Part shown: one piece after another, positions 44,589-46,460 of the stretch
Numbering within the stretch: position 1 is the first letter of the stretch
Layout of the letters: each line of letters begins with the position of its first letter
Assembly: GCF_003019035.1 (NCBI RefSeq)
Contig: NZ_CP027447.1
From: Escherichia coli
GTDB taxonomy: Bacteria; Pseudomonadota; Gammaproteobacteria; Enterobacterales; Enterobacteriaceae
Strand: one strand, 5' to 3'
Length of the DNA: 64,000 nt
Notes under the pieces: model-generated
What the model was told of the DNA's origin: nothing
Seen by the model: the letters and a program-made list of their open reading frames with translations, nothing else
Database searches by the model: none
Translations under genes and position numbers: made by a program

Positions 44589-45356
44589 TTATTCATTTTT
44601 CGCTACCAGCAAAGAGAGATCCTGCTTCGCCAGCGCGCGACTGGCACTCTCCGGCAAACCGTCGTCTGTAATAATCTGATCAAACTCGCTTAATGGTAAC
44701 GCCAGCCATGTCGCCACCTGACCATATTTCGTCGCATCACAGACCAAAACTCGCTGGCGGCTGGCACTGGCAATCGCCCGTTTCACCGTGACTTTATCTT
44801 CCGCTGGCGTAGAAATCCCCCGCACACTCCATGACGATGCAGAAATAAAAGCCTGATCAATCATCAGGCTGCGCAGCATGGTCGCAGCGGCTTCCCCGAC
44901 ACAGGAACGGTTTTCCCGACACACTGCACCGCCAGTGTGAATAATTGTGCAATTACTGTTGTCGAGCAAGTAGTCCGCAATAACGAAATCGTTTGTGACC
45001 ACAGTCAGTGACTCCATGTGAATCAGATGCTGTGCTATCGCTAGCGTGGTCGTTCCCGCATCCAGATAGATACAACTTCCCGGCTGAACAAGACTTGCCG
45101 CCAGCTTGCCAATAGCCGCTTTTTGCGTCATTGCCAGCGCAGTTTTTACCTGATGAGAAGGTTCATGCGCCACGCGTCCCGGAGACTGGACGCCTCCGGA
45201 CACCAGCACAACGGCTCCCTGCTGCTCCAGTTTTTGTAAATCCCGACGAATGGTCATATGTGACACATTCATTCTGTCCGTTAGTTCAGCAATACTGACA
45301 ATGCCTTTTTCAGCTACCATCTCAAGGATGATTTGGCGACGCTCTACGGGTATCAA
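44589..45356 (-). CDS. ygbI: DeoR-family transcriptional regulator; TTG start with SD AAGGAG
   Basis: Recognised sequence; ORF track extends 10 codons upstream to an ATG without SD. Confidence 0.85.
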   Translation of the reverse strand: MIPVERRQIILEMVAEKGIVSIAELTDRMNVSHMTIRRDLQKLEQQGAVVLVSGGVQSPGRVAHEPSHQVKTALAMTQKAAIGKLAASLVQPGSCIYLDAGTTTLAIAQHLIHMESLTVVTNDFVIADYLLDNSNCTIIHTGGAVCRENRSCVGEAAATMLRSLMIDQAFISASSWSVRGISTPAEDKVTVKRAIASASRQRVLVCDATKYGQVATWLALPLSEFDQIITDDGLPESASRALAKQDLSLLVAKNE

Positions 45357-45551
45357 CTTTTGCTCCTTCCTTTGTCCTGCTGACATTCTACGCTATTTGC
45401 CTGCGAAACGTGCGCGGCGCAACTAACGCTTAGTTCACATAAAATAACACACAATGTTAATTTTTGTGAATCAGCTCACCATATCGTTATCTTCCAGCGC
45501 TTATATTCACAATATCAAACAAAATATCACTTAAATTAACAAGGAGAACAG

Positions 45552-46460
45552 ATGAAAACGGGATCTGAGTTTCATGTCGGTATCGTTGGCTTAGGGTCAA
45601 TGGGAATGGGAGCAGCACTGTCATGTGTCCGCGCAGGTCTTTCTACCTGGGGCGCAGACCTGAACAGCAATGCCTGCGCTACGTTGAAAGAGGCAGGTGC
45701 TTGCGGGGTTTCTGATAACGCCGCGACGTTTGCCGAAAAACTGGACGCTCTGCTGGTGCTGGTGGTCAATGCGGCCCAGGTTAAACAGGTGCTGTTTGGT
45801 GAAACAGGCGTTACACAACATCTGAAACCCGGTACGGCAGTAATGGTTTCTTCCACTATCGCTAGTGCTGATGCGCAAGAAATTGCTACCGCTCTGGCTG
45901 GATTCGATCTGGAAATGCTGGATGCGCCAGTTTCTGGTGGTGCAGTAAAAGCCGCTAACGGTGAAATGACTGTCATGGCCTCCGGTAGCGATATTGCCTT
46001 TGAACGACTGGCACCCGTGCTGGAAGCCGTTGCCGGAAAAGTTTATCGCATAGGTGCAGAACCGGGACCAGGTTCGACCGTAAAAATTATTCACCAGTTG
46101 TTAGCGGGCGTACATATTGCTGCCGGAGCCGAAGCGATGGCACTTGCAGCCCGTGCGGGGATCCCGCTGGATGTGATGTATGACGTCGTGACCAATGCCG
46201 CCGGAAATTCCTGGATGTTCGAAAACCGGATGCGTCATGTGGTGGATGGCGATTACACCCCGCATTCAGCCGTCGATATTTTTGTTAAGGATCTTGGTCT
46301 GGTTGCCGATACAGCCAAAGCCCTGCACTTCCCGCTGCCATTGGCCTCAACAGCATTGAATATGTTCACCAGCGCCAGTAACGCGGGTTACGGGAAAGAA
46401 GACGATAGCGCAGTTATCAAGATTTTCTCTGGCATCACTCTACCGGGAGCGAAATCATGA
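45552..46460 (+). CDS. ygbJ: L-threonate dehydrogenase (3-hydroxyisobutyrate dehydrogenase family)
   Basis: Recognised sequence; NAD-binding GLGSMG. Confidence 0.9.
   Translation: MKTGSEFHVGIVGLGSMGMGAALSCVRAGLSTWGADLNSNACATLKEAGACGVSDNAATFAEKLDALLVLVVNAAQVKQVLFGETGVTQHLKPGTAVMVSSTIASADAQEIATALAGFDLEMLDAPVSGGAVKAANGEMTVMASGSDIAFERLAPVLEAVAGKVYRIGAEPGPGSTVKIIHQLLAGVHIAAGAEAMALAARAGIPLDVMYDVVTNAAGNSWMFENRMRHVVDGDYTPHSAVDIFVKDLGLVADTAKALHFPLPLASTALNMFTSASNAGYGKEDDSAVIKIFSGITLPGAKS

Follow-up and report, generated by a model that had tools for sequence, protein, structure and literature searches.

The ygbI gene in this Escherichia coli window (the whole 64,000-nucleotide stretch of DNA that was analysed) starts at a TTG codon on the minus strand at 45356-45354, and not at the in-frame ATG at 45386 with which its longest open reading frame begins. 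We consider it close to certain that a weak promoter lays its -10 element over that ATG, that transcription starts at about 45378, and that the resulting leader carries a Shine-Dalgarno (SD) sequence from which a YgbI of 255 amino acids is initiated at UUG. For ygbI, this picture is established by sequence features, genome annotation, a published transcription start site (TSS), a published signal from initiating ribosomes and conservation across species. There is nothing new in the TTG start, which was reported in 2009, entered GenBank in 2014 and emerged again from initiation profiling in 2016; RefSeq uses it as well.

The sequence of events is, in our reading, as follows. Transcription of ygbI is driven by a sigma-70 promoter that is weak and has TAGAAT at 45390-45385 as its -10 element; it sets out from the A at 45378 and yields a 22-nt leader that presents AAGGAG 6 nt before the UUG at 45356. 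30S subunits bind this leader, and initiation with fMet at the UUG gives a 255-aa repressor of the DeoR family beginning MIPVERRQ. The ATG at 45386 is a by-product of promoter sequence, left untranslated upstream of the TSS.

The start region and its ribosome-binding site

Read in codons, the minus strand runs AAA TAG CGT AGA ATG, continues TCA GCA GGA CAA AGG AAG GAG CAA AAG, and then enters the protein with TTG ATA CCC GTA GAG CGT CGC. The ATG (45384-45386), at which the 2006 annotation began the gene, is in frame and is not a translation start. A mechanical list of open reading frames begins there nonetheless, giving a longest frame of 265 aa (45386 to 44589) with the N-terminus MSAGQRKEQKLIPVERR; this frame is bounded upstream by a TAG at 45393-45395, three codons 5' of the ATG and at -13 codons from the TTG. 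Ten codons 3' of the ATG, and in the frame of the MIPVERRQ... protein, the TTG at 45354-45356 is the true initiation codon, as indicated by the RefSeq start, by the peak in tetracycline-inhibited ribosome profiling (TetRP) and by the TTG or GTG found in orthologues. The coding sequence that follows from it (44589-45356, minus strand; 255 aa plus stop) specifies a DeoR/GlpR-family repressor of threonate/erythronate-utilisation genes, for which RefSeq gives the product name 'DNA-binding transcriptional repressor YgbI'. The SD sequence AAGGAG occupies 45363-45368 and is followed by the 6-nt spacer CAAAAG and then by the TTG, whereas the ATG has no SD. The initial annotation, which had proposed a TTG start on these grounds, described this geometry exactly.

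The difference between the two codons was quantified as the energy of the duplex formed by the 3' end of 16S rRNA (ACCUCCUUA) with the 20 nt that precede each candidate, and was set against a background of all 5892 ATG, GTG and TTG triplets on both strands of the window (mean -2.6, sd 2.5). Before the TTG this energy is -8.0 kcal/mol, within the best 2.7% of the 5892 triplets; before the ATG at 45386 it is -2.6 kcal/mol, which is the window mean, and before an internal ATG at 45320 it is -1.5 kcal/mol. The SD asymmetry between TTG and ATG is real and stronger than background. With -8.0 kcal/mol at the one codon and a background value at the other, there is therefore a strong ribosome-binding site at the TTG and none beyond background at the ATG. 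The 5' leader, taken from the TSS to the base before the TTG, comprises 22 nt on the minus strand (45357-45378; AGGACAAAGGAAGGAGCAAAAG). Together with the first 38 coding nucleotides it has a minimum free energy of -5.4 against a mean of -8.9 for shuffled sequences (z = +1.43); of 200 shuffles, 194 reach an equal or greater stability. Such weak folding of the leader and early ygbI is consistent with an open initiation region.

Much of the published evidence comes from K-12. The window is identical to strain SCU-301 over 972 bp (100%) and shares 99.4% identity with the K-12 derivative TG1; in the ygbI leader it matches K-12 base for base, so that experiments in K-12 apply to it directly. In all four E. 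coli genomes whose annotation was opened (SCU-301, 100% identical to the window; TG1, the K-12 derivative; HS13-1; and K-12 MG1655), the RefSeq/PGAP coding sequence is 768 nt, or 255 aa, and its first base maps to 45356. The GenBank record U00096.3 had in 2014 moved the ygbI start by 30 nt, to give 2860467-2861234, 768 nt as against 798 nt in 2006 (PMC4909307, Table S3). YgbI is likewise listed as 255 aa by Gao 2021 (PMC8464067). The earlier suggestion that the longest-frame call is 10 codons too long thus holds in so far as the extra codons are spurious, but it does not apply to the current RefSeq call, which already starts at 45356.

Transcription start and initiating ribosomes

Directed 5' RACE (DMTSS) mapped the 5' end of ygbI to +9 of the then-annotated ATG (Mendoza-Vargas 2009, Table 2 and supplementary file 3; PMC2760140). 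The same Table 2 gives the sigma-70 -10 element as 'atagCGTAGAATgtca', i.e. cgTAGAATg, and the authors explicitly declared the annotation of the ygbI open reading frame wrong by 10 aa (PMC2760140). Transferred to the window, this 5' end falls on an A of the minus strand, 45378, counted as +9 from the old ATG; the position is either 45378 or 45377, as '+9' and '21 nt upstream' in PMC2760140 disagree by 1 nt. The -10 hexamer TAGAAT of this promoter, ygbIp, is placed at 45385-45390 on the minus strand by sequence and by Mendoza-Vargas 2009; it has five of six matches to the -10 consensus and is separated by 6 nt from the A at 45378. Its last two bases, AT, and the G that follows them are the ATG at 45386. 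Because the TSS maps downstream of it, at its +9, this ATG is not on the mRNA from ygbIp; the TTG at 45356 is on the mRNA mapped by the published 5' RACE, about 22 nt downstream of the TSS.

The remainder of the promoter is poor. At 16-18 nt spacing no recognisable -35 element is present for ygbIp (the best candidates match TTGACA at 0-2 of 6 positions), and a search for a TGn extended -10 returned none. A -35 element is often missing from sigma-70 promoters that are weak or depend on additional factors; its absence here therefore points to a weak promoter rather than to no promoter at all. The -10 region itself is well kept. The surrounding block AAATAGCGTAGAAT is invariant in E. coli, E. albertii and Entomohabitans, and Salmonella and the P0041 locus carry cgTAAAAT at the -10 position. 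The third base of the 'ATG' is T in Entomohabitans and C in S. enterica. The A and T persist in Escherichia and the G varies because what is conserved is the -10 element, as TAGAAT or TAAAAT.

Initiating ribosomes have been located across E. coli by TetRP (Nakahigashi 2016; PMC4909307). In the resulting Table S2, read depth is 92.6/64.9/76.4 at the ygbI TTG and 0/0/0 at the ATG of 2006, and row 45 gives ygbI a new initiation codon TTG, a shift of +30 and a translation starting MIPVERRQ (PMC4909307). The ribosome-profiling check that the initial annotation had proposed is thus already in print, with a peak at the TTG and zero at the ATG. On N-terminal peptides, the entry for ygbI in the Table S2 column 'N'-peptide found' is '1. 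new annotation', category 1 being defined in the legend as a peptide from the new site, and no ygbI row or IPVER peptide was found in Table S4 (PMC4909307). The supplements of the TRAINSPOTTER N-terminomics study hold no entry for ygbI or P52598, and in the Reg-Seq papers YgbI appears only as a binding protein and with its copy number, with nothing on the start site. An N-terminal peptide of the MSAGQRKEQK extension, the observation named beforehand as the one that would speak against the TTG, was looked for and no support for it was found. Taken with the RefSeq annotation, the mapped TSS and the homologues and orthologue DNA described below, these data bear out the proposal that ygbI starts at TTG.

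Conservation of the start and alternative initiation sites

Among 120 homologous proteins, 105 could be anchored on the motif ER[RH], and 100 of these 105 N-termini start M/V-I-P-x directly before it. The MSAGQRKEQK extension is confined among the homologues to a single cluster, P0029, a partial entry from Shigella flexneri. As the N-termini of database proteins are themselves the output of gene callers, the DNA of orthologues was also read. A contig scan provided four loci, of which two were useful, and the others were reached through homologous proteins and the contigs that encode them; in total, 14 orthologous loci from at least nine genera were compared, a set of few sequences that are not phylogenetically independent. 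At the homologous start, all 14 have a TTG or GTG preceded by an SD-like element (-6.3 to -12.1 kcal/mol).

The upstream ATG behaves quite differently from the start itself, and among the 14 loci is in frame in Escherichia and one Salmonella lineage only. Three E. coli loci (the window, TG1 and HS13-1) and E. albertii start with TTG and have the ATG in frame at -10, as does the Salmonella lineage P0021. Entomohabitans starts with TTG and has ATT in place of the ATG; the main S. enterica lineage (P0018) also starts with TTG, and combines ATC for ATG with a 1-nt indel and an in-frame TAA at -6; on the plasmid pEc4097, upstream of another TTG start, the ATG has lost the frame through a 1-nt insertion and an in-frame TGA stands at -10. 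Scandinavium, P0041 (73% identity), Serratia, Yersinia, Dickeya and Pantoea start with GTG and have no upstream in-frame start, with in-frame stops at -4 to -23. Conservation of the 10 extra codons, which had been put forward as a further check, accordingly breaks down outside Escherichia and one Salmonella lineage: in the other loci the ATG is either lost, shifted to another frame or parted from the gene by an in-frame stop. In three comparisons free of indels, substitutions within the 30-nt stretch are spread over codon positions 1/2/3 as 6/5/8 (42% third), and in the next 240 nt as 16/14/81 (73% third; Fisher p = 0.014 between the two). The lack of third-position bias in the 30 nt may be read as supporting evidence only, the sequences being few and related.

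Within E. coli, 4341 of 4588 matching records share the same 76 nt around the ATG, and the ygbI locus was found in 4587 of 5426 complete genomes at 96.8-100% identity. The locus (window 44589-45560) is missing from the other 839 of the 5426, and the ygbI cluster is thus accessory rather than core in this species.

Some of the sequences encountered depart from the common arrangement. In an E. coli-like variant on a metagenome contig (L016, positions 295-312 of ERZ28617657 scaffold_18721), AAGGAG has become AAGGTG, which weakens the SD core; the change creates an in-frame GTG three codons 5' of the TTG, and the protein called there (P0003) is 258 aa long and begins MQKLIPV. The 256-kb plasmid pEc4097 of E. 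coli N18-04097 (L018; NZ_CP047278.1, 10034-11897) carries a second, diverged ygbI-ltnD pair with 85.9% identity over the start region. This pair adjoins a truncated DUF2913 gene and a gene for an Rpn-family recombination-promoting nuclease, neighbours that suggest mobilisation of the threonate-utilisation cluster. In Salmonella, including subsp. arizonae, several clusters of 190-191 aa (P0090, P0094, P0101-P0112) start MAQEPSHQIK and contain DeoRC only, without the helix-turn-helix (HTH) domain; they may be either truncated or pseudogenised copies of ygbI, or another start-site problem in these lineages.

One must consider what can be said for the ATG at 45386 as the real or main start, with a YgbI of 265 aa as in the K-12 annotation of 1997-2006. 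The open reading frame has no earlier start codon, and this one is an ATG; some older database entries, such as P0029 of Shigella flexneri, retain MSAGQRKEQK; and it is in frame throughout the sampled Escherichia. Its persistence in frame in most E. coli, in E. albertii and in one Salmonella lineage counts against a view that admits the TTG alone; its A and T, however, belong to the -10 hexamer and are under constraint there. A codon that has an anti-SD energy equal to the background mean and no SD, that lies inside the -10 element and upstream of the TSS mapped by 5' RACE (PMC2760140), that draws no TetRP reads in any of three samples (PMC4909307), that opens 30 nt devoid of codon-position bias and that in Entomohabitans, S. 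enterica, six other genera and the plasmid pEc4097 is missing, frameshifted or followed by a stop in frame is effectively refuted as the main start, and we accord it a negligible probability.

A subtler possibility is dual initiation, whereby an upstream promoter would under some condition yield a minor 265-aa isoform, in Escherichia only, beside the major 255-aa form. In favour of this is a promoter-like site further upstream on the minus strand (TTCACA-18-TATTTT, 45470-45441; 9/12 matches, with a TG extension); an mRNA begun there would, in principle, be long enough to contain the ATG, and the site so also counts against a TTG-only view. Such sites are, however, expected by chance: the consensus scan found two, which does not exceed the 1.0 +/- 1.2 expected in shuffled sequence. 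Dual starts have been reported for a number of other genes (Nakahigashi 2016; PMC4909307), and across Escherichia the ATG is in frame with no intervening stop; yet the same study's three TetRP samples hold no ribosome signal at this ATG, which also lacks an SD, and there is no conservation of the extension at the protein level (MSAGQRKEQK, MAAGQRKEQK, MVTGERRELK; impossible in other loci). We therefore regard dual initiation as very improbable. Initiation could also be imagined downstream, at the ATG at 45320 (Met13 of the 255-aa form), before which the mapped mRNA has no other ATG. A start there would lack an SD, with an anti-SD duplex of only -1.5 kcal/mol, would forfeit the first seven positions of the HTH_DeoR profile and would leave untranslated the preceding IPVER[RH]Q.IL, which is conserved in about 100 homologues with substitutions biased to third positions; the TetRP peak, moreover, was assigned to the TTG (PMC4909307). 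This candidate was rejected on SD energy, the HTH_DeoR domain and the homologue N-termini, and there is hardly any chance that it is the start. The TTG at 45356 remains the preferred initiation codon.

The repressor, its regulation and related cases

Numbered on the 265-aa form, YgbI contains an N-terminal HTH_DeoR domain (PF08220, E = 3.1e-16, residues 16-69) and a C-terminal DeoRC sensor domain (PF00455, E = 2.6e-51, residues 86-241), both above the Pfam gathering score, and so has the architecture of DeoR/GlpR repressors. Position 1 of the HTH_DeoR profile is residue 6 of the 255-aa YgbI; the HTH begins there, and a protein initiated at the TTG has ahead of it an N-terminal stub of the usual short length.

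YgbI binds the intergenic region between ygbI and ygbJ (ltnD) and represses ygbJK (Gao 2021; PMC8464067). That region (45434-45542) holds four to five copies of a motif of about 16 nt (TCACAnAAAATAACA / TGTTAnTTTTnTGTGA): an inverted pair at 45434-45449 and 45455-45470, its halves 5 nt apart, and others at 45505-45521, 45515-45530 and 45527-45542, reaching the SD of ltnD. Blocks of the motif are invariant in Entomohabitans. The copies agree with the single ChIP-exo peak of YgbI between ygbI and ygbJ (PMC8464067), and are plausible operator sites for it.

YgbI is a scarce protein, at 2-6 copies per cell (values of Schmidt 2016 reprinted in PMC7567609). We infer that a weak promoter with no -35 and a weak UUG codon would jointly keep it at few copies per cell. 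The start codon is TTG in Escherichia, Entomohabitans, Salmonella and pEc4097, GTG in Scandinavium, P0041, Serratia, Yersinia, Dickeya and Pantoea, and ATG in none of the 14 loci; TTG and GTG have been exchanged at least once among them. Non-ATG starts were recorded at 45354-45356 of the window and at loci L005, L006, L008-L015 and L018. That all 14 loci have TTG or GTG and never ATG is the one observation that is mildly new. As a link between start codon and YgbI level, its conservation is only suggestive. Tentatively, and with more doubt than confidence, the non-AUG start may be a selected feature that, with the -35-less promoter, limits an autoregulated YgbI to near-single-digit copies.

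Beyond annotation hygiene, the ygbI start is of little importance, the correct 255-aa form being already in RefSeq, in U00096.3 and in the literature. Legacy GenBank entries with the MSAGQRKEQK extension nonetheless remain (e.g. the Shigella cluster P0029), and callers that favour the longest open reading frame will repeat the error, because TAGAAT and the G behind it spell an ATG in frame. The gene also illustrates, cleanly enough for teaching, how a promoter element can pose as a start codon.

Among regulators with non-AUG starts, lacI of E. coli begins with GUG; regulators of the lacI type and YgbI are alike in being low-copy repressors with a weak start codon. The closest precedent for the present result is the published correction of ygbI itself (PMC2760140; PMC4909307; U00096.3; WP_001300386.1, WP_001295181.1), which moved the start of this very gene by 30 nt to this very TTG; there is no difference of substance, and the strain of the window is non-K-12. 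More broadly, ygbI belongs with ybjX (PMC2760140) and with the 95 genes re-annotated in U00096.3, whose longest-frame starts were moved downstream because the TSS falls within the old open reading frame, and which represent the same class of artefact: a fortuitous in-frame ATG without an SD upstream of a true start that has one. It differs from ybjX-type cases in that the spurious ATG is made by the -10 hexamer itself (TAGAAT plus G), and it is because the hexamer creates it that this ATG persists in Escherichia.
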